NCBI GenBank assembly: GCA_009392295.1 | Contig: VFGW01000017.1 | Location: forward strand, 59,933 to 123,932 | Reading direction: 5' to 3' | Length of the DNA stretch: 64,000 bases | DNA from: SAR202 cluster bacterium | Lineage (GTDB): Bacteria; Chloroflexota; Dehalococcoidia; Lucifugimonadales; GCA-2719675 | In this document: positions 7,858 through 47,070 of the stretch, one piece after another | Numbering within the stretch: position 1 is the first letter of the stretch | How the letters are laid out: each line of letters begins with the position of its first letter | Position numbers and translations under genes: made by a program | Notes under the pieces: model-generated | Told to the model about the DNA's origin: nothing | Seen by the model: the letters and a program-made list of their open reading frames with translations, nothing else | Databases searched by the model: none

Positions 7858-7945
7858 TAAAGTCTCAAGTTCTGATGCAGATATTGTATTTATTAATCGT
7901 AAATTAAATTTTTCTTTTATGTCAAATATTATTGGGAAAATATTG

Positions 7946-21150: not shown

Positions 21151-21164
21151 TTGTAAAATATTAG

Positions 21165-21443
<279 letters not shown>

Positions 21444-21491
21444 ATTCATGGTTGTTGCGATTCTAATTCTAAAGAAAGTTGTTGTAAAATT

Positions 21492-21989: not shown

Positions 21990-22071
21990 AACTATGTTCT
22001 GATTGACAGGGTATAGATATTTTATGGCTTCTGTGATGGAGGTTTTAATTTAATGTGGATATGGAGATTTA

Positions 22072-22599: not shown

Positions 22600-22630
22600 A
22601 TATTAATAAGATAATTAATCGGAGGCTAAA

Positions 22631-24142: not shown

Positions 24143-24178
24143 TTTTTATAAGTTCAAAGTTTGCAATAGGAGTATTTT

Positions 24179-26447
<2,269 letters not shown>

Positions 26448-27433: not shown

Positions 27434-27440
27434 TAATGAA

Positions 27441-27956
27441 TTATTCCCATCCTCTTTTTACTTCTTCGGCACCACTATTTTTTAAGACTTCCTCAGCTTG
27501 AAGCATTTTATCTGGACTTGAAGTTATACATATACCTATATATCCTTCGGTAATTTTTGTGTCATAAGCACCCATGAATAGTCGTGGGAGCCTAGATTCG
27601 AAAATAATTCCAAAAACCGTAAATAAAATTGCTCCCAGCATTGTGCCTTCATACATAATTATTAGCATAGGAGGAATTGATAGAAGGGGTTTCCCTCCTG
27701 TTATTAAAGGAAATGCTATTTGATTACCCGCAGTTAATAAAAGACCAACAATGAATCCGCACATAGCGCCAATAATGGGAAATCTGTAAAGTTTGTGTTT
27801 TGGTTCTTCGTCCCCAAATGTACCATCGGGGTAAGGTGTTCCAGTTAAAATTTCATATTCAGTGGATTTGAATCCTGATTCGGAAACTTTGTCGAGCGCA
27901 TCTGCAACTGAATCTTCATCTGTAAACAAACCAATTACACTTCTTTTGTTAAACAT
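27441..27956 (-). CDS. ActD-like (DUF3341-type) ACIII membrane subunit
   Basis: 171 aa. Soluble N-domain (VIGLFTDEDSVADALDKVSESGF), then two TM segments. Its position is directly after an NrfD-type subunit. Confidence 0.65.
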   Translation of the reverse strand: MFNKRSVIGLFTDEDSVADALDKVSESGFKSTEYEILTGTPYPDGTFGDEEPKHKLYRFPIIGAMCGFIVGLLLTAGNQIAFPLITGGKPLLSIPPMLIIMYEGTMLGAILFTVFGIIFESRLPRLFMGAYDTKITEGYIGICITSSPDKMLQAEEVLKNSGAEEVKRGWE

Positions 27957-27967
27957 AATTAATATCC

Positions 27968-29344: not shown

Positions 29345-29379
29345 TTTATCTCTTAGTGATAATTGATTTGGTCATTTAT

Positions 29380-30780: not shown

Positions 30781-31480
30781 TATGTTCCTGCTTGGTTCCC
30801 TTCTCAACTTTTTTAAGGTAAATTACATTCGGCTCGGTTCCTAATTCTTCTAGCATTTTATAACTACGTTTTTTGCCTTTTGATTTTACTTTAGATATTT
30901 TGCTTTCTGGATCGTTTAAATTTCCAAAAACTAAAGCGTCGGTAGCACAAGCATTTGTACAAGCTGGATTTAAATCTCTCTCAGTAGATTCAGAATTTTT
31001 TGAAAATCGCCTAATTCTTTGTATACAAAATGTGCATTTTTCCATAATTCCGCGACTTCTGACTGTCACATCAGGATTGAGTTGATTTTTAAAGCTTTCA
31101 GGCCATTCAGGTTCCCAGAAATTAAAGAATCTAACTGTATATGGGCAGTTGTTAGCACAAAATCTAGTGCCAATACATCTGTTATAAACTTGTACGTTTA
31201 ATCCTTGATCATTATGGTAAGTTGCTAAAACAGGGCAGACTGGTTCACAAGGAGCTTCGTCGCAATGTTGACATAATACAGGAACATAGCGTGCTCTGAC
31301 ATTTGGGAATTCTCCTTCCCAATACCTTTCAATTCTTATCCATTCAATTGCTCTACGTTGGTTGAATATGTCTTCTGTGTTAATAGGTATGTTGTTTTCA
31401 GATTGGCAAGCAACTACACAAGATTGACATCCTGTACATTTATCTAAATCTATTACCATTCCCCACTTATTTTCAGGCAT
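30770..31480 (-). CDS. 4Fe-4S ferredoxin-type subunit (ActB2 / PsrB-NrfC-like)
   Basis: Cys clusters CTGCQSCVVAC, CQHCDEAPCEPVCP and CIGTRFCANNCP, plus CTFC and CTNAC. Confidence 0.8.
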   Translation of the reverse strand: MPENKWGMVIDLDKCTGCQSCVVACQSENNIPINTEDIFNQRRAIEWIRIERYWEGEFPNVRARYVPVLCQHCDEAPCEPVCPVLATYHNDQGLNVQVYNRCIGTRFCANNCPYTVRFFNFWEPEWPESFKNQLNPDVTVRSRGIMEKCTFCIQRIRRFSKNSESTERDLNPACTNACATDALVFGNLNDPESKISKVKSKGKKRSYKMLEELGTEPNVIYLKKVEKGTKQEHNVH

Positions 31481-31509
31481 ATGATTGTTTCTCCGTATAA
31501 TTTTTTAAA

Positions 31510-33798
31510 TTAGTGATGATGTTTACCTTCTCCATCTCCGTCGATTTTGATCACTTTTCTTTCAGGATCTTGAGGTATTTCTCCCCCTAATTCATTTTCT
31601 AATTGAGGTAATTTTTTCCAATTTCCAGTTTTAGAAATTTTGACCTTTGTTGCAGACCAAGCTAATGCTCCAGTGTTATCGTCTTTTGATGCGTCAAGTA
31701 TGGATAACACATTAGCACCTCTATTTTTTGCATAACGTCCCATTGAAGTATGTCCTTGTCCAACAGGTACACATATTGTGTTAGGAGCAGACGCGGGATT
31801 AGGGTAAGCGATAGCTTCAATGCTTACTCCGTTTTGGTTAGTAATTTTAATTATGTCGCCTTCTGTAATATCTAACTTGGTAGCATCTTTTAGGTTGATT
31901 TCAACCCAAGTAGACCATGTTGCAGTTGAAATTGGATCTGGAAGTGCTTGTAACCAAGGAAGATTAGCTCCTGAGCCATCAGATATTCCATTTGAAACAA
32001 AAGGAATTAAATGAAAATCATACTCAGGGGTATTATTAAATTTAGCTGTTGTTAATTTTTTGAATTTGGGAGGTTTGTTGATTTTATTTTTAAAGGTATT
32101 ATTAATATCCCACCAACCGCCTCTTTGCAAAAGACCGATCCAAAATGCTTTTTCAGTTTGAGCTTGTACAGAGCCTCTTTTGAGCTTAAATAGTTTTTTA
32201 GAATCTTCGAGGATTAAATCTTTAATAGAGTCTGATTCAACATTTATGTCTAAATCCATAGTTTTGGAAATTGATATAAGTGAATCTGAGAAGCTTTTAT
32301 TTCCATAATGTCTACCTTTAGACTCAAAAAATGGCCTTACCACAGGTTGCTGAAAACCTATAGTTTGATATCCAGGCCCAGGATCTGGAATATTAGATCC
32401 CCATTCTTCTAATGGATCTCCTTGTGGTAAGATCAGGTCTGCCATAGATGCAGTATCATCCATATGTTCAGAAAAACTTACAACCAAAGGGACTCTTCGG
32501 GTAGAAGATAAAGTTTCTCTGAATTTAAGGCTGGCCGGCAAGCCGTAAACAGGGTCAACATTTGAAGTTAAGAAAATACTTATTTGACCTTTTTGCATGT
32601 CATTTGCAACTTTTTCCCATTCAGAGAAACTACTAGATATTTCTCTGTTGATCAAATCTGGAAGAGCAGGTTTTGGTTGGAATATGACTCCTCCTTTTTT
32701 ACCAACATTATCAGCCAAATAGTTTAGTGAATAAATAGCAGATAAAGAATCAGCTCCATTAGTATGCGAACCTGCTGTATCCCCGCCAATAGCTAAGCTT
32801 GGTGAATGTTCCATGAATTCATTAGCTATATTGACAATTTTGTCGGGAGTTAAATAAGGGCTAATAATTTGACATACCTTATCTGGGCTATAATCTGCAA
32901 GATCAAATTTGCCATTTTCGGTTAAACTTTCTACATTAGGCTGCGGACCAAGTTTTTGCCTTATTATTACTGAAGCAATTGACATTGCAAGTAAGCCTTC
33001 AGTGCCAGGGTTAACGTAAATCCACTCATCTGCATTTGCAGATGTCATTGAATATCGAGAACTAATGTGAACCATTTTACCTCTATGATCAGTGCCTTGC
33101 CTGAAATGTCCAAAATCTCTTGAATATTTTGTGGGTGAAATCCAACTTTCAAGGAAATCAGCACCAAAAGACAGGAGGTATTTTGTATTTTTAATGTCAA
33201 AATCAGGAATTTGTTCTTGATTAAAGACATGCTTGATTGCAGATCTTAAATTCGTTGATTCGATTGGTTCATAAATTAAATTTTTACACCCTAGAGCATT
33301 TGAAAAATTATTAAGAATCAATTGTGCGTGACCGCTGATTCTGTTGTTTGCGATTAAAATGGAAGATTTATCTTCTACATTGGAAATTTGTTCTGAAACT
33401 CTTGCTATAGCGTCAGTCCAGCTAATTTGCTCCCATTTACCTGAGCCCCTAGGGCCTATTCTGACTAGGGGGCTAGATATACGATCCGGATTATATAAAG
33501 ATTGAAGAGTTGCTTCAGTTCTAGGGAAGTGTTTTCCCTGGTTTATAGGATGATCAATATTCCCTTCGACTTTTTTTGCTCGACCTTCCATAACCCTTAC
33601 TACAACTCCGTCTGTAGCAGGAGTAGTATTAATTGAAGTAGCATACCAATTATCTATACCTGTAACTAGATCTTCTGGCATTTCGAAAGGTGCTTGGATA
33701 ATTAATTCTTTTTCAGGGACACCGCAAGCTTGAAAAACAACAGCACCAATAGCTGTTCCGCCAAGCAATCCTAAAAATTTTCTTCTTGATGTAGTCAA
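31510..33798 (-). CDS. molybdopterin-oxidoreductase-fold subunit with Tat signal (ActB1-like)
   Basis: 762 aa with the twin-arginine motif TSRRKFLGLLGG followed by AVVFQACG. DMSO-reductase-family-like sequence, sitting between the pentaheme and Fe-S genes. Confidence 0.8.
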   Translation of the reverse strand: MTTSRRKFLGLLGGTAIGAVVFQACGVPEKELIIQAPFEMPEDLVTGIDNWYATSINTTPATDGVVVRVMEGRAKKVEGNIDHPINQGKHFPRTEATLQSLYNPDRISSPLVRIGPRGSGKWEQISWTDAIARVSEQISNVEDKSSILIANNRISGHAQLILNNFSNALGCKNLIYEPIESTNLRSAIKHVFNQEQIPDFDIKNTKYLLSFGADFLESWISPTKYSRDFGHFRQGTDHRGKMVHISSRYSMTSANADEWIYVNPGTEGLLAMSIASVIIRQKLGPQPNVESLTENGKFDLADYSPDKVCQIISPYLTPDKIVNIANEFMEHSPSLAIGGDTAGSHTNGADSLSAIYSLNYLADNVGKKGGVIFQPKPALPDLINREISSSFSEWEKVANDMQKGQISIFLTSNVDPVYGLPASLKFRETLSSTRRVPLVVSFSEHMDDTASMADLILPQGDPLEEWGSNIPDPGPGYQTIGFQQPVVRPFFESKGRHYGNKSFSDSLISISKTMDLDINVESDSIKDLILEDSKKLFKLKRGSVQAQTEKAFWIGLLQRGGWWDINNTFKNKINKPPKFKKLTTAKFNNTPEYDFHLIPFVSNGISDGSGANLPWLQALPDPISTATWSTWVEINLKDATKLDITEGDIIKITNQNGVSIEAIAYPNPASAPNTICVPVGQGHTSMGRYAKNRGANVLSILDASKDDNTGALAWSATKVKISKTGNWKKLPQLENELGGEIPQDPERKVIKIDGDGEGKHHH

Positions 33799-33824
33799 CT
33801 AATTCCCTTTGTTGATGTTAATTG

Positions 33825-34433
33825 TTAGTAATGACAAGTTGTACAATCTGTTGGTCCGTCATTTTTCTTGTGGCAATCGATACAATCTCCCATTTTTAAT
33901 TCTCGTGCTTGCCTGACTTTTTCCATTTCAGTTACATTGCCATGGCATATTGTACAAGTTTCAGATGGGGCTACATTATTTTTTTCAGAAAAATGTTTTA
34001 CATGGGCTTCGTGTATGAAATGGGCATGGTCTGGAACACGATGCACTCGAATCCAATCTATGGTTCCTTTAGACGCATAGATAGAACGTAATTTTTCGAT
34101 CTCTTCTAAATCATCACCTACACTTTTATGGCAAGTCATGCACAAAGTAACCGAAGGCACAGATGCTGATGCCTCTGATGTTACGGTTCTATGACAAAAT
34201 GTACAATCAAGACCTAATTCCTCAACATGAGTTTTGTGAGGAAATTTTATGGGTTGATCGGGACCTTCATTAAGGCCAAAAACGTCTAAAGGTAATCCAA
34301 GCCAGGCAGATAAAATAAAAGAAACTAATGTTATTGCAGCGGCTAAACCAATTAAACCTACTAAAGATATAATTATGAGATAGGTAACATTTTTTTTGTT
34401 ACGTTTGGGGAATTGAAAATCGCCTGGAATCAA
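33825..34433 (-). CDS. membrane-anchored pentaheme cytochrome c (ActA-like)
   Basis: N-terminal TM helix and five CxxCH motifs (CTFCH, CMTCH, CTICH, CIDCH, CTTCH). Confidence 0.8.
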   Translation of the reverse strand: MIPGDFQFPKRNKKNVTYLIIISLVGLIGLAAAITLVSFILSAWLGLPLDVFGLNEGPDQPIKFPHKTHVEELGLDCTFCHRTVTSEASASVPSVTLCMTCHKSVGDDLEEIEKLRSIYASKGTIDWIRVHRVPDHAHFIHEAHVKHFSEKNNVAPSETCTICHGNVTEMEKVRQARELKMGDCIDCHKKNDGPTDCTTCHY

Positions 34434-34468
34434 ATTAATTTAACCTCGATAAAGTTTTTAAATATTTA

Positions 34469-34804
34469 TTAAATCCAAATAGCATTATAGATTTCCTTTA
34501 CAACAGGAAGCGCACTGAAGGCTGTATATAGAAGATAAATTAAAGCAAACGAACTGATGATGCATATTGCATAGCATGTTTTTTGAATTTTTAGTAAAAA
34601 TGAAACAAATTTGGGATTTTCTAGCTTTGCTCCGTTTATTACGGATAAAGGGCTGTCTCCAGAATCAACAAGAGAAGGAATAAAAATATATCCAACCAAT
34701 AAATTTGTTGCAATAATTATTACAACACCTACTGAATAAAACATAAAGTGTAAAAATTGACTAATTTCAGCCCAATGAGAACCTGTAACAGTAATTGGAT
34801 CCAT
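34469..34804 (-). CDS. hypothetical small membrane protein upstream of actA-like gene
   Basis: 111 aa with two hydrophobic segments, on the same strand 35 nt upstream of the pentaheme gene. I recognise no family. Confidence 0.4.
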   Translation of the reverse strand: MDPITVTGSHWAEISQFLHFMFYSVGVVIIIATNLLVGYIFIPSLVDSGDSPLSVINGAKLENPKFVSFLLKIQKTCYAICIISSFALIYLLYTAFSALPVVKEIYNAIWI

Positions 34805-35104
34805 TAAATATACCTAGATTTATTTCCTTTGTAATTTAAAGTTGAATTTAAAAATGTAAATAATACAAATAACTTCAACAGGGAACAATTCTATAAATAT
34901 TGGATCAAAGTGTCAATTCAAATTTGGGAATTTAAATTGGTAAAATTACTATAAATTATTCAAACTTTTTACTAGTGATCTTTTTGTATCAAATTAGATG
35001 GTGTAACATTTTATCTTGCACACAAGGACATAAGGATATAAATGAAGGAATTAATTATGATGTGTTACAATTCAAACCAAAGTTATTGGATATACATTTA
35101 AATT

Positions 35105-36274
35105 ATGAAAGAAGCCGTAATTGTAAGTGGAGTAAGAACTGCGATCGGGAGATTTGGTGGGATTTTCAAAGATGTTTCTGCTCCTGTTTTAGGAGCAGCT
35201 GCAATTAAAAGGGCAGTAGAGAATTCGGGTGTCAATCTTAAAGATGTTGATGAAGTAGTTTTTGGTAATTCTATACAGGGCGCTGAAGCTGGATATGCTG
35301 CTAGGATGTCTTCTTTATTGTCAGGGTTGCCTCAGGAAGTTCCAGCAGTTGCAATCAATAGACAATGTGCATCAGGGCTTGAGGCAATAAACATAGCAGC
35401 TCAGTTAATAATCTCTAATCAAGCAGAGATAGTTGTAGCTGGTGGCACGGAAAGTATGAGTCAAGCTCCATTTTTAAATACATATCAATCTAGGTTTGGC
35501 GGGCATAGTACAAATTCAGATGCATTGATGAATTCAATTTCGTGTCCGGTAAATCAATATCAAATGGGTGTTACTGCTGAGAATATAGCAAGTAAATATA
35601 AAATTTCCAGAGAAGAGCAGGATCATTATGCTTTAGAAAGTCAGCGAAGGGCAATTGATGCTATTAAGAATTCAAAATTTAAGCAACAAATCGTAGGAGT
35701 AACGGTTTCTACCGAGTCGGGAGAAAAAGTTGTTGATCAAGATGAATGTCCTAGAACTGATTCTACTATAGAAAAATTAATTAATTTGCCCCCAGTATTT
35801 CAAGAAAACGGAACGGTGACTGCGGGAAATTCTTCTGTTATTAGCGATGGAGCAGCAGCGGTTGTTATGATGTCGTTGGATTTGTGTAGAAATTTGGGTA
35901 TTGAGCCGCAGTTAAAATGGATCAGTAGGGGCGTTGCAGGTGTTGATCCAGCTTTAATGGGCACTGGGCCTGTTCCTGCGTTGCGCAAGTCAATTTTGTC
36001 CGCAGGATTGAATATAGATGACCTAGATTTGATTGAATTAAATGAAGCATTCGCTGCGCAATCTATTTATTGCATAAGAGAATTAGGGCTAGATATTGAA
36101 AAAACTAATGTTAATGGTAGTGGAATAAGTTTAGGACACCCTATAGGCGCAACTGGTGCAATATTAGTGGTTAAATTAATGGAAGAAATGAATACAAAAA
36201 ATTATTTATATGGAGCGGCCTCGTTGTGTGTTGGTGGAGGACAGGGAGTATCTAGTGTTTTTGAAAATATTTGA
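35105..36274 (+). CDS. acetyl-CoA C-acetyltransferase (thiolase II)
   Basis: Active-site regions NRQCASGLEA, GHPIGATG and CVGGGQGV. 389 aa. Confidence 0.9.
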   Translation: MKEAVIVSGVRTAIGRFGGIFKDVSAPVLGAAAIKRAVENSGVNLKDVDEVVFGNSIQGAEAGYAARMSSLLSGLPQEVPAVAINRQCASGLEAINIAAQLIISNQAEIVVAGGTESMSQAPFLNTYQSRFGGHSTNSDALMNSISCPVNQYQMGVTAENIASKYKISREEQDHYALESQRRAIDAIKNSKFKQQIVGVTVSTESGEKVVDQDECPRTDSTIEKLINLPPVFQENGTVTAGNSSVISDGAAAVVMMSLDLCRNLGIEPQLKWISRGVAGVDPALMGTGPVPALRKSILSAGLNIDDLDLIELNEAFAAQSIYCIRELGLDIEKTNVNGSGISLGHPIGATGAILVVKLMEEMNTKNYLYGAASLCVGGGQGVSSVFENI

Positions 36275-36351
36275 GATTTGATTGTCTGGATTCGCCTGTA
36301 CAGAGACTGAAAAGGGTGTTTTTAAGAAAAATATGTAATTTAAGGTGGATT

Positions 36352-37515
36352 ATGAAAATTGTTAAAGTAAATCCAATTTGTATTAAAGGACAAACGGGAA
36401 GAGCTCAAATAATTGTTAAAGTAGATACGGATGTTGGAATGTATGGACTTGGAGAAGCTGGGATTCCAAATTGGGGGAAATCTGTAATAGAAGCAATTAA
36501 TCATTTGTCTGAGTTGCTTATTGGTAAAGATCCATTTCAAACAGAAAGATTGTGGCAGGATATGTTTAGGAGAGGGTTTTTTCCTGCTGATAGAGTTTAT
36601 TCATCTGCAATTAGTGCGTTAGATATAGCCCTTTGGGATATAAAAGGGAAGGCAACAGAATTACCAGTATATAAGCTGTTAGGAGGTCCGCTGAGAGATA
36701 AAATTGTATGTTATACACATTGTAATGATGCTGGTAACACAGAAAAATTAATTCAAAGTTGCGGGGAAAAAATTGAACAAGGCTGGAAGTTTTTGAGATG
36801 GAGCCAGCCTGTTTCAGGAGATGTTAATTCTCAAGGAAGTAGCATTTTTGATCCTTTAGAGTCAATTGATTTAGTTGAAAGCCAAGTAGATCAAGTTAGG
36901 AAAATTTATGGAAAAAAGATCCAAATTTGTTTAGATGTACATACAAGATTAGATACAGCAAATTCAATTACATTGTTTAAAGTTTTAGAAAAATATCGTT
37001 TGTTTTTTATTGAAGATCCACTAAGAGCGGAAAGTTCTAGGAGTTATAGGACTTTGTCTAAATATTCAACTACACCTATTGCAGCTGGTGAGCAATGGGT
37101 GGGTAAATGGGGTTTCAGAGAAGCTGTTGAAGAAGAATTAATTCAATATGCAAGAATTGATTTATGTATTGTAGGTGGATTAACAGAATCTTTAAAGATT
37201 GCACATTGGTGCGAAGCTCATTATATTGATATTGTCCCTCACAACCCTTGGGGACCTATTAGTTCAGCTGCTTGTGCAGCATTGTGTATGTCTGTAACTA
37301 ACGTGGGGGTATTAGAAATGCCAGAGATTCCGGGTAGTTTGGATCAAGATATTTTCCCAGTTCAATTAATTTGGGATAAAGGATATGCTATTCCCCAAGA
37401 CGTCCCTGGATTAGGCGTTGAAATAGACATGGATGTTGCTGAAAAATATCAAGTAACTCCTAATTCTTGGCACCCTAATCTTGTTAGGAAGGATGGTTCG
37501 TTGACGAATTGGTAG
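36352..37515 (+). CDS. enolase-superfamily enzyme (mandelate racemase/muconate lactonizing family, sugar-acid dehydratase-like)
   Basis: MKIVKV... N-terminal capping domain, GLGEAG, a barrel with CLDVH, FIEDP and AAGEQ metal-ligand-type segments. ATG 36352 follows AAGGTGG. The track start at 36271 overlaps the thiolase end. Confidence 0.8.
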   Translation: MKIVKVNPICIKGQTGRAQIIVKVDTDVGMYGLGEAGIPNWGKSVIEAINHLSELLIGKDPFQTERLWQDMFRRGFFPADRVYSSAISALDIALWDIKGKATELPVYKLLGGPLRDKIVCYTHCNDAGNTEKLIQSCGEKIEQGWKFLRWSQPVSGDVNSQGSSIFDPLESIDLVESQVDQVRKIYGKKIQICLDVHTRLDTANSITLFKVLEKYRLFFIEDPLRAESSRSYRTLSKYSTTPIAAGEQWVGKWGFREAVEEELIQYARIDLCIVGGLTESLKIAHWCEAHYIDIVPHNPWGPISSAACAALCMSVTNVGVLEMPEIPGSLDQDIFPVQLIWDKGYAIPQDVPGLGVEIDMDVAEKYQVTPNSWHPNLVRKDGSLTNW

Positions 37516-37575
37516 ACGGAGTATTACATTTGTAGTAAATTTTATACTAGCATTTTTGTTAACGGAGACGGCAAC

Positions 37576-38262
37576 ATGAAAAACATTTCAATCTCTGAAA
37601 TTTTTTGGATTTTTTCTTTTATTTTTTTGATTACTAGTTTGGGAATAGTTTTTATGTGGGCCCCAACTGATGTAAATCTTGGTGTTTCTCAAAAAATATT
37701 TTACTTACATCTTCCAACTGCAATATTAGGAATGATTAGCATAGTGATTGTTGCTTTTTTAAGTATTTTGTATCTTCTTAATTCCGAAAATAATAAATGG
37801 GATGATTTAGCATACTCATTTGCTGAAGTTGGCATGATATTTCTCACAATTGCATTAATTAGCGGGTCGTTATGGTCAAAGCCTGCTTGGGGAGTATGGT
37901 GGACATGGGAACCAAAATTAACTTTAACTTTAGCATTATGGTTTGTTTATGTTGCTTATTTGATGATGAGATCCTATATGTCTGATTTAAGAAATGAGGC
38001 GAAATTTGGAGCAATAGTTGCGTTAATTGGATCTATAGATGCACCTTTGATATACTATGCAACTGAACTTTGGCGATCAGCACATCCAGGTGCTGTTGTG
38101 GGACCCAATGCAGAACCTGGAGCGTTAGACGAAAGAATGTTTTTAGCATTGATTTTATCATTTATCGCTTTTTCGTTTATGTTCATATTTTTTGTTTCTA
38201 ACAGATATTTTTTGAGAAAAACTGAAACAAGAATGAATATGATGGTTAGGAAATTAAATTGA
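37576..38262 (+). CDS. ccmC: heme exporter protein C (System I cytochrome c maturation)
   Basis: Trp-rich signature WGVWWTWEPKLT, conserved His contexts (YLHLPTA, SAHPG) and six TM segments. Confidence 0.85.
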   Translation: MKNISISEIFWIFSFIFLITSLGIVFMWAPTDVNLGVSQKIFYLHLPTAILGMISIVIVAFLSILYLLNSENNKWDDLAYSFAEVGMIFLTIALISGSLWSKPAWGVWWTWEPKLTLTLALWFVYVAYLMMRSYMSDLRNEAKFGAIVALIGSIDAPLIYYATELWRSAHPGAVVGPNAEPGALDERMFLALILSFIAFSFMFIFFVSNRYFLRKTETRMNMMVRKLN

Positions 38263-38283
38263 TTATTTTATTGGAGGTTTAAA

Positions 38284-38421
38284 TTGGAATATTTTGCTGC
38301 GGCATATTTAATTGCAGGGTTTGTTTTTTTTGGATATTCCTTTATTTTGTCGAGAAAAATAAAAGATTTAAAAAATGACATTCAAGAGTTACAGATTCGT
38401 ATAGAGGAAAATTCTTCATGA
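38284..38421 (+). CDS. CcmD-like small membrane protein (45 codons, below the ORF-track cutoff)
   Basis: TTG start 6 nt after GGAGG (38273..38277). The product is (M)EYFAAAYLIAGFVFFGYSFILSRKIKDLKNDIQELQIRIEENSS, with one TM segment. Its stop overlaps the ccmE start as ATGA, and it occupies the position between ccmC and ccmE. Confidence 0.4.
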   Translation: MEYFAAAYLIAGFVFFGYSFILSRKIKDLKNDIQELQIRIEENSS

Positions 38422-38876
38422 ACAAACCTGAATCATTTGAAGAAAATTTAGATTTTCGCGAACAAGAAATTAGTTTCATTTATACACACAGAATTAAGCT
38501 GGTTGTTGCTGTTTTGGTGTTAGTTTTAGCCGTAGGGTATTTAGCCTTTAACGCATGGGATAGTGCAAAAGTTTACTATTACACTGTAGCAGAAATAAAA
38601 GAAATTGGCCCAACTACTGAAGGGCAATTTGTCAGGGTAAGCGGAAAATTAATTGAGGGTTCTTTTGAAAGAGTTCAAAATACTACCTTGGCGTCTTTTA
38701 TACTTACTGATGGATCCGAAACTGTTCAGGCGATACATCAAGGTATAATTCCAGACCTCTTTTTCAATGAACATTCTGAAATAATTTTAGAAGGTAGGTA
38801 TACTCAAGATAATATTTTTGAGAGTAATAACATTATAGTTAAATGTCCTTCAAAATATATTGCATCTTCAAGTTGA
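38418..38876 (+). CDS. ccmE: cytochrome c maturation heme chaperone CcmE, CxxxY variant
   Basis: N-terminal TM anchor and an OB-fold pattern (FVRVSGKLIEGSF, GIIPDLF). The C-terminal VKCPSKY aligns with the canonical AKHDENY, so Cys (38844..38846) replaces the heme-binding His. Confidence 0.8.
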   Translation: MNKPESFEENLDFREQEISFIYTHRIKLVVAVLVLVLAVGYLAFNAWDSAKVYYYTVAEIKEIGPTTEGQFVRVSGKLIEGSFERVQNTTLASFILTDGSETVQAIHQGIIPDLFFNEHSEIILEGRYTQDNIFESNNIIVKCPSKYIASSS

Positions 38877-38880
38877 AATA

Positions 38881-39792
38881 TCAGGGCAAATTGATTTTTG
38901 AGCTTATGTTAGATTCAAACTGAGTCATTTCTGAAAGAGTTTCTTTTGGCCAACTTCTATTCCATTTATCTACCACAGAAACTTTTAATTTTTCTAATCC
39001 TGTGATTTCCATTTCAATTTGGTCTCCATTTTGAATAGGTCCTAATCCGGTGTGATTTGTGCCAGTGGAGACCACATCTCCTGCCTGTAGAGTTGTTACC
39101 CAAGAAGCAAATTCTAGTACTTCGTTGACCGATCTTCCCATATCACTAGTATGAACATCTTGTCTTATTTTGTTGTTCACCCATAATCTTATTCTCAAGT
39201 TTTGAGGGTTTTTAATCTCGTCTTTAGTAACAATGCAAGGGCCCATTGGGCCGAAGGTGTCCCAAGATTTTCCCCAAAAAAAACTATTATTTCCGTTTGG
39301 TTCAATTCCTCTTGCAGAAATATCCATGAAGTTCACGTATCCAAAAATATGGTCTAGGGCTGAGTTAGGAGAAATATTTTTTGTTGTTTTTCCTATTACT
39401 ACACCCAGTTCTGCTTCATGATGGAATACTGGAGCTGGGCAATCTGGCAATATTACTTCTCCACCATGTCCTATTACAGAACTTGGGGATTTTAAAAATG
39501 CATCGCGATCTCCGACCAATGATCGTGATCCATTTTCTAAATAATTTCCAGCCATACATACCAAGCGTTTTGGTTCTGGAAGCGGAGCCTTTAACTGAAC
39601 ATCGTCAATTTTAATTTTTGGTGAAGAGATTTTTTGAATTACATCTTTATAAGATTCAAATTCTTTGATAATTCCAGACATTAAAGTTTGTCCATCAATA
39701 CAAGGAATATCAGAAACTGCTTCAGAGATATCTATTACATAGTCTCCGTCAATAATTCCAGGTATATCTTGATTGAATAGAACGAATTTCAT
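38881..39792 (-). CDS. fumarylacetoacetate hydrolase (FAH) family protein
   Basis: 303 aa with the FAH C-terminal domain pattern (HEAELGVVIGK, IFGYVNFMDISAR, GDVVSTGT). Confidence 0.8.
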   Translation of the reverse strand: MKFVLFNQDIPGIIDGDYVIDISEAVSDIPCIDGQTLMSGIIKEFESYKDVIQKISSPKIKIDDVQLKAPLPEPKRLVCMAGNYLENGSRSLVGDRDAFLKSPSSVIGHGGEVILPDCPAPVFHHEAELGVVIGKTTKNISPNSALDHIFGYVNFMDISARGIEPNGNNSFFWGKSWDTFGPMGPCIVTKDEIKNPQNLRIRLWVNNKIRQDVHTSDMGRSVNEVLEFASWVTTLQAGDVVSTGTNHTGLGPIQNGDQIEMEITGLEKLKVSVVDKWNRSWPKETLSEMTQFESNISSKINLP

Positions 39793-39819
39793 TAAAGGCT
39801 CCGGTTGTATTTAGATTTG

Positions 39820-40680
39820 TTATTTTCCTGTAGTATTAGTAAGAGTTCCTACACCTTCTACAGTACCTTCGATTACATCACCTGGATTCAAGTAAATTTC
39901 ATCATCAGTAGCACCTGCGGCAACTCCAGTGGCTATTAAGTCACCAGGTACCAAAGTACACAGATTAGATATATACTCGATTTGGCTTTCAATGTTATGA
40001 ATCATAAGCTTAGTAGTAGAAACTAATCTTTCTTCCCCATTAACCTTTGTAGTTAATTTTAAATCTGTAGGGTCCTTCAAGTCCTCTGCAGGTATAATCC
40101 AAGGTCCTACAGCGCAGTAGCCATCAAGCCATTTACCATTTAACCAATCAAACCATCCACTCCTGGCTGGGTTTTTTCTGTTAGGAGAAAAGTCTAAATC
40201 TCTTCCAGAAACATCATTAACCACAGTGTATCCAAAAATATGATCGAAGGCATTTTCTTTCTTAATATTTTTACCTGGTTTTCCAATTATTACACCAAGC
40301 TCGATTTCTTCAACTTGGTTGACTACTAACGAATTATCTGGAATTATGTCCCCATCTGCAATTAAAGCAGTTGAAGGCTTGATGAAAAACTCAGGCTCTT
40401 CAATGTTTAAATCTTTGTCTAAAGTGCCACCTACTGGAGTATAGTTTGCAGCCAGTAACAATAATTTTTTAGATCCATCAATGGGAGAGAGTAGTCTTAC
40501 ATCTCCTAAGGAATGGTGAGTCATTGATGCATTTTTTAGCTGGTTTAACCCACTTTTATCAAGTAATGGAATTGTTTCCAAATTTCCTGATGACCCAGGA
40601 ACTTCAGATATTGTTTCTCCATCTAAGATTCCAACGGCAGGCCCAGTTGAATTATTAGCGATATATCTAACTAGTTTCAT
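39820..40680 (-). CDS. FAH family protein, adjacent paralog
   Basis: 286 aa with EIELGVIIGK, IFGYTVVNDVSGRD and GDLIATG. Confidence 0.8.
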   Translation of the reverse strand: MKLVRYIANNSTGPAVGILDGETISEVPGSSGNLETIPLLDKSGLNQLKNASMTHHSLGDVRLLSPIDGSKKLLLLAANYTPVGGTLDKDLNIEEPEFFIKPSTALIADGDIIPDNSLVVNQVEEIELGVIIGKPGKNIKKENAFDHIFGYTVVNDVSGRDLDFSPNRKNPARSGWFDWLNGKWLDGYCAVGPWIIPAEDLKDPTDLKLTTKVNGEERLVSTTKLMIHNIESQIEYISNLCTLVPGDLIATGVAAGATDDEIYLNPGDVIEGTVEGVGTLTNTTGK

Positions 40681-40869
40681 TGATTTCTCCTTGAACGTTT
40701 AATTTGTTTGAAAATCATTATAGATGTTTTTTTTAATGGGATAAAGTTGTTTTTGATTTTAACATAAGAATTTTATTGGATTAATGTAAAGTCATTGAAC
40801 TTCATTGTTGTAATTCGATGCAATAAATATGTAGTATTTGTAAAAAATTGAAAATCTTGGAGTTTGGAA

Positions 40870-41961
40870 ATGAAATATACAGCAGCCGTTATAGGGTTAG
40901 GAAGAATGGGGAGCACCTTTGATGATGAAATTGATAAGGCCCATGGCCCTGGCGGAGATAGACGTGGAACATCTATTATTTTGCCTTATTGTCATGGGCC
41001 TAGCTATTTTGCATCCGATAAGATTGCCCTTGTTGCTGGCGCAGACCCGGATCCTGAAAAGCGTGAAAAATTTGGTAATCGCTGGGAAATAGAAGCTAAA
41101 AATTTATTTGAATCGCATCAAGAATTATTGAAAGTTATTAATCCTGACATATTGAGCGTTTGTACAACGGCTAAAATTAGAAGCAAAATTGTTATTGACG
41201 CAGCCCGTTCTGGAGTGAAAGCAATTTGGGCAGAAAAACCAATTTCAACAACCCTTAAAGAAGCTGATGAAATGATAGAAATTTGTGAACAAAATAATGT
41301 TGTGTTTGCAGTGAATTGTGCCAGAAGATGGAACCCATATTATTATCAGGTAAAAACAATGATTGATGAAGGGGTTTTTGGAAAGATTTTACAAATTACA
41401 GGCTATGGGTCTGCTTATGCTTCTCACAATGGGAGTCATTTAATTGACACTATGAGATTTTTAGGAGGCGGAGGTGTTTCTTGGGTTTTTGGAGAAGTTG
41501 AAAATGAAAGTCTTGATGGGGATAAAGATTTTCGTGCTAACGGCTATCTTGCTTTTAAAAATGGTGCGAGAGGCTATTTAAGGTCTATGGATTGTGGCGT
41601 AGGTAACTGGAACATTGAAGTTATAGGAGAGAAAGCGCGATTTTTATCATCTGGAGATACTGCAGTATTAGAATTTGAAAAAGTTGGGAAACAAATTTCG
41701 GGAGATTTCACAGATAATGTCAAAATTCCATTCCCCAAGCCTGCAAGATTTCAGGGTATGGGATTGACTATAATTGATGATTTAATTCATGGAATTGAAA
41801 CCGGCTCTACGCCTAGATGTTCAGGTAAAGATGGTTTGGCTGGATTGGAGATAGCTATTGCTTTGAGGGAGTCGCATTTGTCAGGTAACAAAAAGATTAT
41901 GTTGCCTATTAAAAATAGAAATTTAGGTGTTATTTCGTATGAATCTGAAGGCGGTAGATAG
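40870..41961 (+). CDS. Gfo/Idh/MocA-family oxidoreductase
   Basis: AVIGLGRMG and the IWAEKPISTTLKEADE motif. ATG 40870 has GGAG 7 nt upstream; the track start is TTG 40864. Confidence 0.75.
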   Translation: MKYTAAVIGLGRMGSTFDDEIDKAHGPGGDRRGTSIILPYCHGPSYFASDKIALVAGADPDPEKREKFGNRWEIEAKNLFESHQELLKVINPDILSVCTTAKIRSKIVIDAARSGVKAIWAEKPISTTLKEADEMIEICEQNNVVFAVNCARRWNPYYYQVKTMIDEGVFGKILQITGYGSAYASHNGSHLIDTMRFLGGGGVSWVFGEVENESLDGDKDFRANGYLAFKNGARGYLRSMDCGVGNWNIEVIGEKARFLSSGDTAVLEFEKVGKQISGDFTDNVKIPFPKPARFQGMGLTIIDDLIHGIETGSTPRCSGKDGLAGLEIAIALRESHLSGNKKIMLPIKNRNLGVISYESEGGR

Positions 41962-43032
41962 TTATTGAGTTTTCATATCATTAATATCAATATTAAAGTT
42001 TTTTGCTAATTTTGAAATTGCACCCCATGTTGCATCTTCAATTTCTACACCATGAGTAATTCGATGGCTTCTAGTATTAAATTCTATTTCACCTGGAAAA
42101 AGTATTTCATTTACTCCTTCCATTTTAGGTGTGTCTTTAACATAGTTTACGATGGCAGAAACTTCTTGGCTGAAATCGTCAATTGAAGAAATAGAGTTTA
42201 GATTGATTACTAGTATTGAGGATCCCACTTTATCTACAGTGGCTTTATTATCAGCAGAAGTAAGCCCTATACTTCCTAATACTGCGCCCATTAAAGATAC
42301 CATCATGGAAAGTCCAAAACCTTTGTGGCCGCCGATCGTACCACCTATGGGTAATATAGCGCCACCTTCATAATAGGCATTTGGATCATCTGTGGGGGTT
42401 CCATTTTTATCGATTACCCAATTGTCAGGTAATTTTTTATTTCTTGCTTTATAGACTCTGAGTTTGCCTTCGGCTGAAATTGAAGTTGCAAAGTCTATTA
42501 AAATAGGACAATTTTTTTTGTAAGGAAATGCCATTGACAGTGGGTTTGTTCCGAGTCTTCTTGCACTACCTCCAAATGGGGCAACATTATTTCCCACATT
42601 TCCTCCAACAAATCCAGTAAACATCATTCCTACCATTCCGGCATCTGCTACTATTTCTGTATATGTCCCAATTCTACCTGTATGTCCAAGGTTGCCCATT
42701 CCTATTACTGAGACTCCATGTTTTTTAGCTTTATCAATCGCTAATTGAGTAGAAAAGGACGCTACAACTTGTCCAAAAGAGTCGTTGCCATTCACTTGTA
42801 CTGTAGAACCATTATCAGAAGTTATTTCTGGAGAAGCTTTTGGATCTAGTCTACCTGTTTCAATATCATTAAAATATTGGGGAATTCTTATTAATCCATG
42901 AGAATCGTGCCCTACTAAGTTTGCATTAGATAGATGCCTTGCCACAATGTCTGCGTTATTTATTGTTGCGCCTTTTGCAGAAAGCATTGTTTTTGAAATT
43001 GAATAGATTTTTTCATGGTCTAAAATTGGCAT
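41962..43032 (-). CDS. Ldh_2-family (malate/L-lactate/sulfolactate dehydrogenase-type) oxidoreductase
   Basis: GHDSHGLIRIPQY motif and GGHKGFGLSMM. ATG 43032 follows AAGGA. Its stop abuts the stop of the previous gene. Confidence 0.8.
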   Translation of the reverse strand: MPILDHEKIYSISKTMLSAKGATINNADIVARHLSNANLVGHDSHGLIRIPQYFNDIETGRLDPKASPEITSDNGSTVQVNGNDSFGQVVASFSTQLAIDKAKKHGVSVIGMGNLGHTGRIGTYTEIVADAGMVGMMFTGFVGGNVGNNVAPFGGSARRLGTNPLSMAFPYKKNCPILIDFATSISAEGKLRVYKARNKKLPDNWVIDKNGTPTDDPNAYYEGGAILPIGGTIGGHKGFGLSMMVSLMGAVLGSIGLTSADNKATVDKVGSSILVINLNSISSIDDFSQEVSAIVNYVKDTPKMEGVNEILFPGEIEFNTRSHRITHGVEIEDATWGAISKLAKNFNIDINDMKTQ

Positions 43033-43069
43033 CAGCAATCCTTTTTTGTTTAATTAGTTGAAATTATTT

Positions 43070-43418: not shown

Positions 43419-44369
43419 ATGTCTGAAATATTAATTGTTAGTAAAATCGCAAAAAATATTCGAGAAAATATCCAGAAAATTATTGTTGGAAAAGATGACC
43501 AAATTAATACAGCAATCATAGCTATGTTATGCAGAGGGCATGTCTTAATTGATGATGTTCCCGGGACAGGGAAAACAAGTTTATCAAAGGCATTGGCAGA
43601 TTCTTTGGATTGTAGTTTTAATCGAGTTCAATTTACCCCAGATTTGATGCCTTCAGATATACTTGGAGTGAATATATTTGATCAAAAAAAATCGACTTTT
43701 AAATTTATTGAAGGACCTATATTTAGTCAGATTTTGTTGGCTGATGAGATTAACAGGGCGACACCTCGTACACAATCAGCAATGCTAGAAGCTATGCAAG
43801 AAAGAAGGGTAACGGTTGATGGCAATACCAGGGATTTACCGGATCCATTTATGGTCATTGCTACCCAAAATCCTATAGAAATGGAAGGTACTTTTCCTCT
43901 TCCAGAATCACAAATCGATCGTTTTATGGTGCGTATTCAGCTTGGATATCCTGGACATGATGAAGAAACACAAATTTATCGAAGATTTATGAATGAGTCT
44001 GAAGTTCCTGATTTAAAGCCTGTTTTTGATTCAAAAGAAATTAATAAAGCTGTTAATTTGATACCAACTGTTAGGGTTGATGATTTTATAGTTAAGTATA
44101 TAGTGGATTTGATTCATGTTACTAGGCAAGGTTCAGGCATTAAAGTTGGAGGTAGCCCTAGAGCTGGACTTGCATTATATAAAACATCTCAAGCATTAGC
44201 TGCATTGGAAGGAAGAGATTATGTTATTCCTGATGATGTAAAAAAAATGGCAGTACCTGTTTTGTCACATAGGTTGGTATTAGACTCTTCTGCTAAGTTA
44301 AAAGGTCAAACTGGAGAAAATTTTGTTGAAATTGTTTTGTCTAAATTAGAAGTTCCTATCTCTAAATGA
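43419..44369 (+). CDS. MoxR-family AAA+ ATPase
   Basis: Walker A DVPGTGKT, Walker B LLADEINRA, and the characteristic QFTPDLMPSDILG and VIATQNP segments. Confidence 0.9.
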   Translation: MSEILIVSKIAKNIRENIQKIIVGKDDQINTAIIAMLCRGHVLIDDVPGTGKTSLSKALADSLDCSFNRVQFTPDLMPSDILGVNIFDQKKSTFKFIEGPIFSQILLADEINRATPRTQSAMLEAMQERRVTVDGNTRDLPDPFMVIATQNPIEMEGTFPLPESQIDRFMVRIQLGYPGHDEETQIYRRFMNESEVPDLKPVFDSKEINKAVNLIPTVRVDDFIVKYIVDLIHVTRQGSGIKVGGSPRAGLALYKTSQALAALEGRDYVIPDDVKKMAVPVLSHRLVLDSSAKLKGQTGENFVEIVLSKLEVPISK

Positions 44370-45646
44370 AATACGATCAGGATTATACACAACAGGTAAA
44401 AAATAAATCTTCAGTTCCTGTTTCTGGGCTACTAATTACTAATCAATGGTTAGAAGTATTATTTGTTGCGTTTTTGGCAGTTTTGATTAGTGGGATTTTT
44501 GCTGGTAATGGTGGAGTAATAGCTTTTGGAATTATGGGAATTACAGCAGGATTACTATCTTATTTATTTAGCAGAGTAGCGCTCAATCAAGTTTTTTATC
44601 AGAAAAAATTTAATGGAAACAGATTTTTTGTAGATGAACTTGTTGAAATGCAAGTTGAGATTACAAATAAAAAACCAATTCCTGTGCCTTGGATTCGAAT
44701 GCAAGATGAAATGTCTGAATCTTTTGAGGTGGTAAACCAAGATGTTACAAATTTCATTTTCAATTCTTATACAAAAACACAGATTTTGAGACATTTTGCT
44801 TCTATGCGTTGGTATGAAAGAATTCGATGGAAATATGAATTAAAGTGCACCAGGAGGGGTGTATTTAAAATAGGTCCTAGTAAAATTGAAAGCACAGAGC
44901 CTTTTGGAATGTTTGGTTCTCAAATCAACGAGGATTCTTTTGATGAAATTATTGTTTATCCTAAAATAGTACCTCTTGATGAATTGATTTTACCTCCCTT
45001 AAAGCCGTTTGGAGAGAGTTCTGGAGGAATGGAATTAATACAAGATTTTTCTGGACCTAGAGGGTTACGAGAATATTCTTCTGGAGATAAATTAAGTACT
45101 ATAAATTGGAAATCTTCAGCTAAATTACAAAAATTGCATGTCAATTTATATGATCCAAGTTCTTCGCATACTATTATTGTAGCTGTTGCAGTTGATTCTT
45201 TAGAAACTTATTGGGCTCCCGGAGATACAGAAATTATTGAAAACATAATGTCTATGGCTGCCTCAATATCTCACCATGCCCTTTCTAACAATTACACGGT
45301 AGGTTTAGTGTCTAATGATATGCAGACTCGAGAATCAAAGGCGTTTATTGTTTCTCCAGGAAGGGGGGAATATCAATTAACAAAGATTCTTGAGTCTTTG
45401 GCAAGTATTAATACGTTAGCTTACGCACCTATGGCAGAGCATCTTGTAGAAGTTTCTAGAAGTTTTCCTATTGGTTCAACAATTACTATATGTATTTCTT
45501 ATGTTAGTGATGATTTATTGAATTCCATTAAATATTTATTGAACAAAGGCTGCCTAGTTGTTGTTTTATATTTAGGAGAAGGTGATTTGCCTAATTTTGG
45601 GCCAGATATATACGTATATGATTTTAGAAAGAAAATGAAAAAATAA
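44366..45646 (+). CDS. DUF58 (vWA-like) protein with N-terminal TM segments
   Basis: GLREYSSGDKLSTINWKSSAK matches the DUF58 signature region. ATGA overlap with moxR. Confidence 0.7.
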   Translation: MKYDQDYTQQVKNKSSVPVSGLLITNQWLEVLFVAFLAVLISGIFAGNGGVIAFGIMGITAGLLSYLFSRVALNQVFYQKKFNGNRFFVDELVEMQVEITNKKPIPVPWIRMQDEMSESFEVVNQDVTNFIFNSYTKTQILRHFASMRWYERIRWKYELKCTRRGVFKIGPSKIESTEPFGMFGSQINEDSFDEIIVYPKIVPLDELILPPLKPFGESSGGMELIQDFSGPRGLREYSSGDKLSTINWKSSAKLQKLHVNLYDPSSSHTIIVAVAVDSLETYWAPGDTEIIENIMSMAASISHHALSNNYTVGLVSNDMQTRESKAFIVSPGRGEYQLTKILESLASINTLAYAPMAEHLVEVSRSFPIGSTITICISYVSDDLLNSIKYLLNKGCLVVVLYLGEGDLPNFGPDIYVYDFRKKMKK

Positions 45647-47070
45647 TGAATTTCAAATTAAATCTTAATAAGATTAAATGGATTTCAGTTGCCCATGTGA
45701 TATCTGAAAGTTCATGGATGTTTGCCATAATGTTGATGGTTGGTGTCGCTTTTGGTAAAACTATTCCTTCTCAACAGCCAATTATTACTTGGTTTGGTGT
45801 TTTATTCTTGATGGCGGTTGGCGCATATTTGGGGCATTATGATTTCTTTGGGCTGAAAATACGTTTTCGTTCTTTGATCACGTTGTTAATGATTTATTTT
45901 ATTGTGGCTTTGACTCCAGCTCCTAATCATAGTTTTGAAATTCTTTGGCCAAATTTAATTTTCTCTAACGATAGTACAACTGGATATAAGTTTCGCTTAA
46001 TATTATCTATTTTCTTTAGTGCTCTTTTATGGTTGCGTAGTACTAGGATAGGTTCTATAGATTCTCCTGACCAAGGAATGTCAACTAGTTTTAAAATCGG
46101 AGTTTTAATTCTTAGTTTAGCGATAGTTGTAGATTTATTTAGCGCAAAGAGTTTAGGCACATTTATTTTGTCTATTATCTTTTTTGCTTCAGGTTTATTT
46201 GGTCTTGGATTTGCCAATATTGATGTTAATGATTACCAAAATGAAGACAATAATAATATAAACCCAATCACTGTGACTGTTGGAGTTTTAGTTATAATGA
46301 TTTCTTTTGTGGGGATTATTTCGACGTTTTTTCAAGGTGATATTGCTAACTATGTTTCTTTATTGATTTTTGCTTTTTACCAAGCATTTGTGTTTGCTTT
46401 TATTTGGGGATTTGTTGTTCCAATTGCGTGGCTATATGGTTTTATAGTCAATTTAATTAGACAATTATTTATGGGTTCAGGTTCTGGTGTACAGACTAGA
46501 GATGCCCCGCCTATGAATTTTTCTGAAGAAGCTATTGAGTCTATTCAAAACATTCAAAATGAAGGTGGAGTTAATCCAATTTTCTCAATAATTTTGTGGA
46601 CATTATTTACTATAGTTCTGTTGTTTATATTGTATTTGAGTATTAGGTATTTGATTAGACCTAAAAGTAAAAAAATAATTCAATCAGTTGGAGAGAGAGA
46701 GTCTTTAGTTGAAGATGCAAATGTTTTAGGAGATTTTAGAGATTTATTTTCAAGTTTGATACCTGGGATAGGAGGAAGAAGGAAAAAATCTTTATATAGT
46801 ACAGATGAAAAATCTAAAGGGATTATTGAGGTTATTATGCTTTATTATAAATTTTTAGAATTTGCAGAAACTAGGGGTGTTCACAAAAAACCATATCAAA
46901 CTACCCTTGAATTTCGAACATCTCTACAATCTGTTTTCAACAGTCATTTTGTGAAAGAAATTACGGATAGTTTTAATGATGCTTTTTATGGTTCAAAGTC
47001 TTTTGATATTGACACTATTCTGAAACTTGAAAATCAATTTGATCAAATACGTTTTGGAAAAACCAGGTAA
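45646..47070 (+). CDS. polytopic membrane protein with DUF4129-like C-terminal domain
   Basis: Third gene of the usual MoxR-DUF58 triad. Many TM segments and a C-terminal soluble region (PYQTTLEFRTSLQ...) that resembles DUF4129. I see no obvious transglutaminase Cys-His-Asp core. TAATG overlap with the previous gene. Confidence 0.5.
   Translation: MNFKLNLNKIKWISVAHVISESSWMFAIMLMVGVAFGKTIPSQQPIITWFGVLFLMAVGAYLGHYDFFGLKIRFRSLITLLMIYFIVALTPAPNHSFEILWPNLIFSNDSTTGYKFRLILSIFFSALLWLRSTRIGSIDSPDQGMSTSFKIGVLILSLAIVVDLFSAKSLGTFILSIIFFASGLFGLGFANIDVNDYQNEDNNNINPITVTVGVLVIMISFVGIISTFFQGDIANYVSLLIFAFYQAFVFAFIWGFVVPIAWLYGFIVNLIRQLFMGSGSGVQTRDAPPMNFSEEAIESIQNIQNEGGVNPIFSIILWTLFTIVLLFILYLSIRYLIRPKSKKIIQSVGERESLVEDANVLGDFRDLFSSLIPGIGGRRKKSLYSTDEKSKGIIEVIMLYYKFLEFAETRGVHKKPYQTTLEFRTSLQSVFNSHFVKEITDSFNDAFYGSKSFDIDTILKLENQFDQIRFGKTR

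Follow-up and report, generated by a model that had tools for sequence, protein, structure and literature searches.

A cysteine-type CcmE in a ccmC/ccmD-like/ccmE cassette of a SAR202 bacterium, the probable heme-loading module of a dispersed System I pathway

System I*, a variant of the System I (Ccm) pathway of cytochrome c maturation, was reportedly first defined by Allen et al. 2006 with CcmH absent from the genome, and its Cys-type CcmE is attributed to that work and to Goddard et al. 2010. As restated in Gupta et al. 2022 (PMC9084895), the bacterial CcmE motif is either HXXXY or CXXXY; the same paper reports that in M. acetivorans heme attachment requires C120, the cysteine of the CXXXY motif, and its discussion records that E. 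coli H130C CcmE binds heme but does not pass it on. For the CxxxY CcmE of Desulfovibrio (D. desulfuricans), Cys-dependent covalent heme binding was established by experiment, as summarised by Stevens et al. 2011 (PMC3601427). In that review, Chloroflexi are included among the Cys-CcmE bacteria ('chloroflexi and firmicutes also feature'), CPSKY is the commonest Cys-CcmE motif, about one third of the Cys-CcmE bacteria possess CcmH, and a lack of CcmH does not characterise these bacteria as a group. Beyond this review, our literature searches found nothing on cytochrome c biogenesis in SAR202, Dehalococcoidia or Chloroflexi, and no biochemistry of any Chloroflexota Ccm protein.

The locus described here lies in a 64 kb stretch of DNA from a SAR202 cluster bacterium (the whole stretch, 34% GC, is called the window below) and is an ordinary member of the known Cys-CcmE variant: Cys-CcmE in Chloroflexi at the phylum level and the CPSKY motif have both been known since 2011, and the window CcmE shares phylum and motif with the Chloroflexi proteins of the review. 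For Dehalococcoidia and SAR202 the review does not go down to single genes; the class-wide ccmC/ccmD_alt/ccmE cassette and a separate DRTGG/ccmH-ccmF locus are described here gene by gene. The trio probably serves heme loading in a System I (Ccm) pathway whose genes lie dispersed, the bacterium being a marine, low-GC member of SAR202/Dehalococcoidia. The features of the window used below are as follows.

26795-34433, minus strand: Alternative Complex III (ACIII) operon (Pfam: ActD, NrfD, molybdopterin-like ActB, FeS subunit, cytochrome c7 / cytochrome c)
26795-27433, minus strand: ActE, 1 CXXCH motif
33825-34433, minus strand: ActA, 5 CXXCH motifs
37576-38262, plus strand: ccmC, 228 aa (PF01578 E 5.8e-33, TIGR01191 E 8e-38)
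37708..37710, plus strand: codon of CcmC His45, which pairs with E. coli CcmC His60 (BLASTP, YLHLP / YLHVP)
37888..37911, plus strand: tryptophan-rich (WWD) motif of CcmC, WGVWWTWE, aligned with E. coli WGTWWVWD
38083..38085, plus strand: codon of CcmC His170, which pairs with E. coli CcmC His184 (BLASTP, SAHPG / TLHQG)
38273-38277, plus strand: GGAGG ribosome-binding site, 6 nt 5' of the TTG of the small ORF, read from the sequence
38284-38421, plus strand: ccmD-like small ORF, 45 codons, TTG start (TIGR04391, CcmD_alt_fam, E 8e-4)
38418-38876, plus strand: ccmE, 152 aa, membrane-anchored, Cys-type (PF03100 E 8.9e-23)
38844-38846, plus strand: codon tgt of CcmE Cys143, aligned with E. coli CcmE His130, the heme-binding residue (HMMER)
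38856-38858, plus strand: codon tat of CcmE Tyr147, in the column of E. coli Tyr134, the heme-iron ligand (HMMER); invariant in alignment A1

The window CcmE is a member of the PF03100 family (81 bits, cut-off 24.6 bits) and matches the solved CcmE structures 8ce8_E, 1sr3_A, 1j6q_A and 2kct_A; the NCBIfam equivalog CcmE models score below their cut-offs (best 73.6 vs 126 bits), as expected of a divergent clade. It has the architecture of a CcmE, with an N-terminal anchor (residues 25-47 are hydrophobic and align with the E. coli membrane anchor), a periplasmic domain, and a tail with the heme-binding residue and the Tyr. C143xxxY147 of this tail lies 6-10 residues before the C-terminus; the protein ends in ...NNIIVKCPSKYIASSS (...IIVKCPSKYIASSS). 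In a phmmer comparison with all PDB sequences, 'vkCpskY' of the window pairs with 'akHdenY' of E. coli (8ce8_E, 1sr3_A). A profile built from 15 homologues repeats the Cys143/His130 pairing, and it aligns the Cys-type CcmE of D. vulgaris (2kct, '...TKCP') with '...VKCPS' of the window. No His was found in or beside the heme-binding column in the HMMER alignments; with Cys in the E. coli His130 column and His absent, the protein is a Cys-type CcmE. A preliminary description of this DNA had aligned the tail by eye, reading Cys for His (CxxxY, here CPSKY) with the Tyr retained, and had proposed an alignment of homologues as the check on this column. Since phmmer and profile give the same pairing, the by-eye alignment was right, and the Cys column has no alternative His.

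The Cys form is by no means confined to the window. Among the 120 listed CcmE homologues (of 539 in all), 119 are full-length in that they extend to the C-terminus, and all 119 carry VKCPSKY. The two peptides PDLFFNEH and IVKCPSKY are matched by 314 species-level genomes (one genome per GTDB species); the best 80 of these are all labelled as Dehalococcoidia, SAR202 cluster or Chloroflexota MAGs, and Chloroflexota bacterium SP301 (PBID01000003.1) comes closest, with 84% CcmE identity. When HMMER was run without filters over 1.84 billion representatives of 50%-identity clusters, 2015 of them matched CcmE at E <= 1e-3 and 433 at E <= 1e-10. The best 150 span 29-58% identity; KC(P/A)(S/T)(K/R)(Y/F) is found in at least 114 of them, another ~20 have xCPSKY-type motifs, and only 2 are His-type. 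Judged from these sequences, the Cys form is the normal, class-wide state in Dehalococcoidia/SAR202, and the cysteine is no local substitution but was inherited from far back throughout a large clade; its invariance across homologues and in alignment A1 indicates that Cys143 is the product of neither chance nor a sequencing event. The suggestion in the preliminary description that a Cys-type CcmE was worth documenting in this lineage has accordingly lost its force, given a class-wide Cys form and the 2011 record of Chloroflexi and CPSKY (PMC3601427).

The CcmC of the window shares 32% identity with its E. coli counterpart (BLASTP, E 3e-31) and has what marks a System I CcmC, namely the WWD motif, in which Glu replaces the E. 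coli Asp in the alignment, and the pair of conserved His ligands. In E. coli CcmC the heme is ligated by His60 and His184, to which His45 and His170 of the window correspond. The CcmC gene lies directly 5' of ccmE in all 87 loci compared (the window and 86 related loci).

Between the two genes lies the small ORF, whose stop codon overlaps the ATG of ccmE (ATGA). TIGR04391 is its sole family match and scores below the curated cut-off (19.3 bits vs 24 bits), and both its topology (one transmembrane helix, then a basic coiled tail) and its position between ccmC and ccmE are those of CcmD_alt_fam. In the two closest relatives, L001 (an ENA contig) and L007 (the locus of SP301), an AGGAG site and the TTG start are kept at the same place, and the frame stays open over 21-24 codon differences (10-11 synonymous and 11-14 non-synonymous). 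A jackhmmer search of the 87 loci, seeded with the corresponding core from another locus (L004), found a homologous core in 87/87, between ccmC and ccmE wherever it was located, and all 13 cores tested match TIGR04391 (best E 3.8e-12). The 45-codon, TTG-start ccmD-like ORF proposed in the preliminary description is thus in all probability a real CcmD-family gene. The majority of Dehalococcoidia have a longer form of 100-130 aa, in which a signal-like N-terminal helix and a variable linker precede the conserved helix; the window's clade has the 45-aa core alone, a probable short form of the CcmD_alt family. E. coli CcmD falls in TIGR03141, not TIGR04391. We note that in some members the CcmD_alt protein is fused to a Calx-beta domain.

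The trio is flanked on the 5' side by a thiolase and an enolase-superfamily gene and on the 3' side by two FAA-hydrolase genes on the opposite strand; the ACIII operon lies on the upstream side, with a gap of 3.1 kb to ccmC. A Pfam sweep of window ORFs of at least 120 aa found none of ccmA, B, F, G, H, ResB and CcsA, and when E. coli CcmA-H were compared by phmmer with every window ORF of at least 40 aa, CcmC and CcmE were matched and nothing else. On these points the preliminary description, which saw an isolated ccmC/ccmD-like/ccmE set placed between unrelated catabolic genes near ACIII, was correct: no further ccm gene is found in the 64 kb, and the neighbours and the gap of about 3 kb are as it said. 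The functional link to ACIII that it implied does not follow from the adjacency, which just three of the 87 loci show, the window and the two loci nearest to it: L001 and L007 (the latter covering 10 kb on each side) have the window's gene order, ACIII is absent within 10 kb of the trio at the other 84 loci, and in more distant relatives the trio sits among wholly different genes. The proximity therefore reads as a lineage-specific accident, and the presence of the ccmC/small ORF/ccmE trio in 87/87 loci across many contexts points to selection that acts on the three genes together. The c-type cytochrome subunits of ACIII are likely clients of the trio's pathway. A promoter and terminator scan of 34400-39100 gave 17 promoter-like signals in the window vs 19.4 in shuffled sequence, and 2 vs 2.4 terminator-like ones.

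Part of the remaining pathway is found near the trio in relatives. In 18 of the 87 loci, ccmB is found at a distance of 3-7 kb, in most cases on the strand opposite to that of the trio (e.g. PF03379 E 2.4e-40 for CcmB of L069), and in 15 of these 18 ccmA is found beside ccmB (E < 1e-15); unrelated genes lie between the ccmAB pair and the trio. Two ORFs of 570 and 288 aa in the gap between ccmE and ccmBA of L069 were considered as synthetase genes and rejected, being 2-oxoacid:ferredoxin oxidoreductase subunits. According to phmmer with E. coli queries, no CcmF or CcmH is encoded within 10 kb of any ccmE in the window and the 86 related loci, and a single CcmG-like ORF is found, in L047; the synthetase genes were therefore sought elsewhere.

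For this, the CcmF motif WGGxWxWDPVEN was turned into a coding pattern biased towards AT, with which we scanned the JGI metagenome collection. Most of the hits were SAR11-like CcmF with WGGFWFWDPVEN (25-30% GC), and tetranucleotide correlation was non-discriminating for the lineage, all AT-rich contigs reaching at least 0.95. A link between contig L175 and the window (63% identity, last ORF) was also set aside, since the matching ORF is the highly conserved PdxS and the match is taxonomically uninformative. BLAST of flanking ORFs singled out L165, a contig of 5.5 kb (33% GC) with a DEAD helicase 79% identical to that of L001, a CcmH of 140 aa (PF03918 E 7.3e-29; LMCPVC aligned with E. coli LRCPKC) and a CcmF of 652 aa (PF01578 + PF16327). 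L208, a JGI contig of 61 kb (35% GC), has the order DEAD helicase (81% identical to that of L001), DRTGG-domain gene, ccmH, ccmF, followed 3' of ccmF by ORFs of 92 and 342 aa without a Pfam match. Homologues of the L165 CcmF number 7570 proteins at E <= 1e-10; wherever one of the best 120 bears a name at NCBI, it is that of a Chloroflexi or SAR202 CcmF. From their GC, the one helicase at 79-81% identity, the DRTGG/ccmH/ccmF synteny and the names of the CcmF homologues, we attribute L165 and L208 to the window's clade.

In every relative examined (L165, L208, L210 and L212), CcmH is encoded directly 5' of ccmF and has the CPxC motif (PF03918 E 7e-29 and 1.7e-28). CcmF in these relatives is unsplit, ~650 aa long, with a CcmF_C domain and histidines at ~172, 261, 303 and 503, near the positions at which E. 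coli CcmF has its four conserved ones; no CcmG was seen beside their ccmF or ccmH. Both loci occur together on a 2,890,033 bp Dehalococcoidia contig from ENA (ERZ21830300:ctg717494l), which carries ccmC, a 113-aa ORF and a CPSKY ccmE (P0056) at 1.67 Mb, and the DRTGG gene, ccmH and ccmF (P0182) at 0.36 Mb, 1.3 Mb from the trio. A 3,500,881-bp chromosome appears to bear both the trio and the DRTGG/ccmH/ccmF locus as well. The absence of CcmH that goes with System I* is therefore not seen in relatives with the same CcmE, and the tie to the systems of Desulfovibrio and archaea that lack CcmH, which the preliminary description had implied, is not borne out.

The window and its relatives share features with both described systems. 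Like the System I* of Desulfovibrio and archaea (PMC3601427, PMC9084895), the window has CPSKY, that group's commonest motif, and its CcmE aligns with 2kct; as in archaeal System I*, the ccm genes are dispersed and not in one operon. Desulfovibrio and archaea lack CcmH, whereas the relatives of the present lineage have it beside ccmF; archaeal CcmF is split and that of the relatives is not; and archaea lack CcmD, whereas the window has a probable CcmD-family gene. The likeness to the canonical System I (E. coli ccmABCDEFGH) lies in the heme-ligand histidines and WWD motif of CcmC, in the OB-fold family, membrane anchor and Tyr134 equivalent of CcmE, in the single-helix topology of CcmD and, in the relatives, in CcmAB, a CxxC-bearing CcmH and a ~650-aa CcmF with the CcmF_C domain. 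It differs from the E. coli system in the change from His130 to Cys in CcmE, in a CcmD that would belong to TIGR04391 instead of TIGR03141, and in ccm genes scattered on the chromosome, with no CcmG seen beside ccmF/ccmH.

On the reading of the trio as a heme-loading module, CcmC would hold heme b via His45, His170 and the WWD motif and offer it to CcmE on the outer face of the membrane. The OB-fold CcmE would then bind this heme covalently, using Cys143 in the VKCPSKY tail at its C-terminus, presumably by a thioether bond to a vinyl group, with Tyr147 ligating the iron. The CcmD-family protein and a CcmAB ATPase encoded elsewhere may aid the release of holo-CcmE, which would hand its heme on to a CcmF/CcmH synthetase whose genes likewise lie elsewhere, and this in turn would attach heme to CXXCH motifs, for instance those in ActA and ActE. 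For the window's own organism we infer the CcmAB and CcmF/CcmH partners, the chemistry and the clients, the presence of ccmAB and ccmH-ccmF being taken from relatives.

Several other readings of the trio were weighed. One is the minimal, CcmH-less System I*, in which the Cys-CcmE would hand heme to CcmF alone, without CcmH and CcmG; the shared CPSKY motif, the alignment with D. vulgaris CcmE and a window without ccmH or ccmG are what one would see in that case. We nevertheless consider it improbable, as a PF03918 CcmH with CPxC stands directly 5' of ccmF in four relatives, one relative has ccmH-ccmF and a CPSKY ccmE on the same contig, and about one third of the Cys-CcmE bacteria have CcmH anyway (Stevens et al. 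2011, PMC3601427). A clade that keeps CcmH and an unsplit CcmF is not of the CcmH-less flavour.

The trio could also have a partner other than CcmF/H or another role in heme trafficking, with cytochromes matured by System II (ResB/CcsA) or a second, His-type CcmE. With 64 kb of the genome in view and the genes dispersed, co-function is unreadable from an operon, which leaves some room for this idea. We rate it as very improbable nonetheless: the window contains no ResB/CcsA gene, phmmer with E. coli CcmC and CcmF queries found no second PF01578-family gene in the ~1.7 Mb of flanks of the 87 ccmE loci, Chloroflexi/SAR202 CcmF homologues are abundant (those 7570 proteins at E <= 1e-10, the names coming from the best 120), and the nearest 150 CcmE cluster representatives are almost all Cys-type. 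That the trio is the decaying remnant of a lost pathway is, in our view, extremely improbable. It does stand apart from the other ccm genes, and its CcmD copy is cut to 45 aa vs 100-130 aa in most relatives, but the three reading frames are intact with their catalytic residues retained, the motif does not vary over hundreds of genomes, the ribosome-binding site, TTG start and ATGA coupling are conserved, and likely client cytochromes are encoded 3 kb away. Heme loading within a dispersed System I pathway remains the preferred role of the trio.

It is conceivable, if rather unlikely, that Dehalococcoidia/SAR202 represent a third System I architecture, in which a thioether-bound Cys-CcmE is resolved by a CcmH-containing CcmF/H (a pairing that fails in E. 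coli with H130C CcmE, PMC9084895), together with a distinct CcmD_alt that in most members has a long exported N-terminal extension. If it is true that the clade's CcmF/H is adapted to break the Cys-heme bond, the clade would be a natural system for studying what determines heme release from CcmE.

The significance of this locus outside annotation is small. For annotation, it provides a 45-codon, TTG-start ccmD that is overlooked by gene callers, and since the ccm genes are scattered, the scoring of pathway completeness in MAGs should expect no operon. The class-wide combination of Cys-CcmE and CcmH, a pairing known since 2011, is usable as a natural contrast to the CcmH-less systems of Desulfovibrio and archaea. 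In SAR202, an abundant deep-ocean group, the respiratory cytochromes (ACIII subunits and others) would be matured by a System I with a Cys-type CcmE.

The ccmCDE trio of the window (ccmC, a ccmD-like ORF and a Cys-type ccmE) is surrounded by a dense group of catabolic paralogue families (35105-43038), including a thiolase, an enolase-superfamily MR_MLE protein, a pair of FAA hydrolases, Ldh_2 and a GFO/IDH/MocA oxidoreductase; the interval 2346-4612 holds further GFO/IDH/MocA genes. In six more distant relatives (loci L021, L029, L037, L043, L051 and L080), a homologue of MR_MLE with 56-61% identity is located no more than 10 kb from ccmCDE. The metagenome-assembled genome SRP260945_co2_388 contains two separate ccmE loci, L012 (CAZEDC010000061.1) and L085 (CAZEDC010000139.1), both matched via Cys-clade peptides; the gene may be genuinely duplicated in this genome, or the bin may mix two strains.

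CcmD-family proteins with periplasmic extensions are found among the relatives. Some Dehalococcoidia encode a longer protein (about 195-240 aa) that starts with a signal-like segment, contains a Calx-beta domain (PF03160) and finishes with the CcmD-like helix at its C-terminus; most other relatives encode a form of 100-130 aa with a variable, exported linker. Instances of the longer form are:

L037:9334-9933, plus strand, CcmD-like helix with Calx-beta domain (E 6.1e-18)
L029:9197-9916, extended CcmD-like protein
L080:9328-9924, extended CcmD-like protein

Also present in the window is a complete Alternative Complex III (ACIII) operon (26795-34433, minus strand); the genes for the F1Fo ATP synthase (20038-26447) lie immediately upstream of it. 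Its members, all on the minus strand within this interval, are:

ActA, pentaheme, 202 aa
ActB, encoded by two ORFs, one molybdopterin-like (762 aa) and one FeS (236 aa)
probable ActC, a 475-aa ORF without a Pfam match
ActF, NrfD-like, 458 aa
ActD, 171 aa
ActE, monoheme, 212 aa

The sole thiol-redox candidate within the window is a DsbA-like thioredoxin-fold protein (53179-53802, plus strand; PF01323, E 9e-15). A MoxR/DUF58-type cluster (43419-47070, plus strand) encodes a MoxR-type AAA ATPase (AAA_3) and a DUF58 protein, together with a membrane protein of 474 aa whose only matches, to DUF4129 and tetraspanin, are weak. We note that a similar MoxR and DUF58 pair is found near ccmH-ccmF in the relative's locus L212.

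A metagenome contig with 31% GC, L175, carries pdxS, pdxT, ccmF, ccmA, ccmB and ccmC, in this order, as a single cluster (1-8871). Its CcmC shares 41% identity with a SAR202 CcmC, and the contig comes from a different low-GC organism. The PdxS match between L175 and the window was rejected as a taxonomic link; it reflects only the high conservation of PdxS.

In both low-GC contigs L208 and L209, ccmF is followed by two membrane-protein ORFs of 92 aa and 342 aa (L208:8441-9747 and L209:2430-3736, both plus strand) with no significant Pfam match; in L210 and L212, ccmF is not followed by these ORFs. Each of the four Dehalococcoidia loci examined, spanning 33% GC to high GC, has upstream of ccmH-ccmF a divergently oriented gene whose product, of about 326 aa, combines DRTGG and CbiA-like domains:

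L165:1959-2939, minus strand
L208:4817-5797, minus strand
L210:3994-4989, minus strand
L212:3290-4267, minus strand

The synteny of the DRTGG/CbiA-like gene with ccmH-ccmF is conserved over these four loci.
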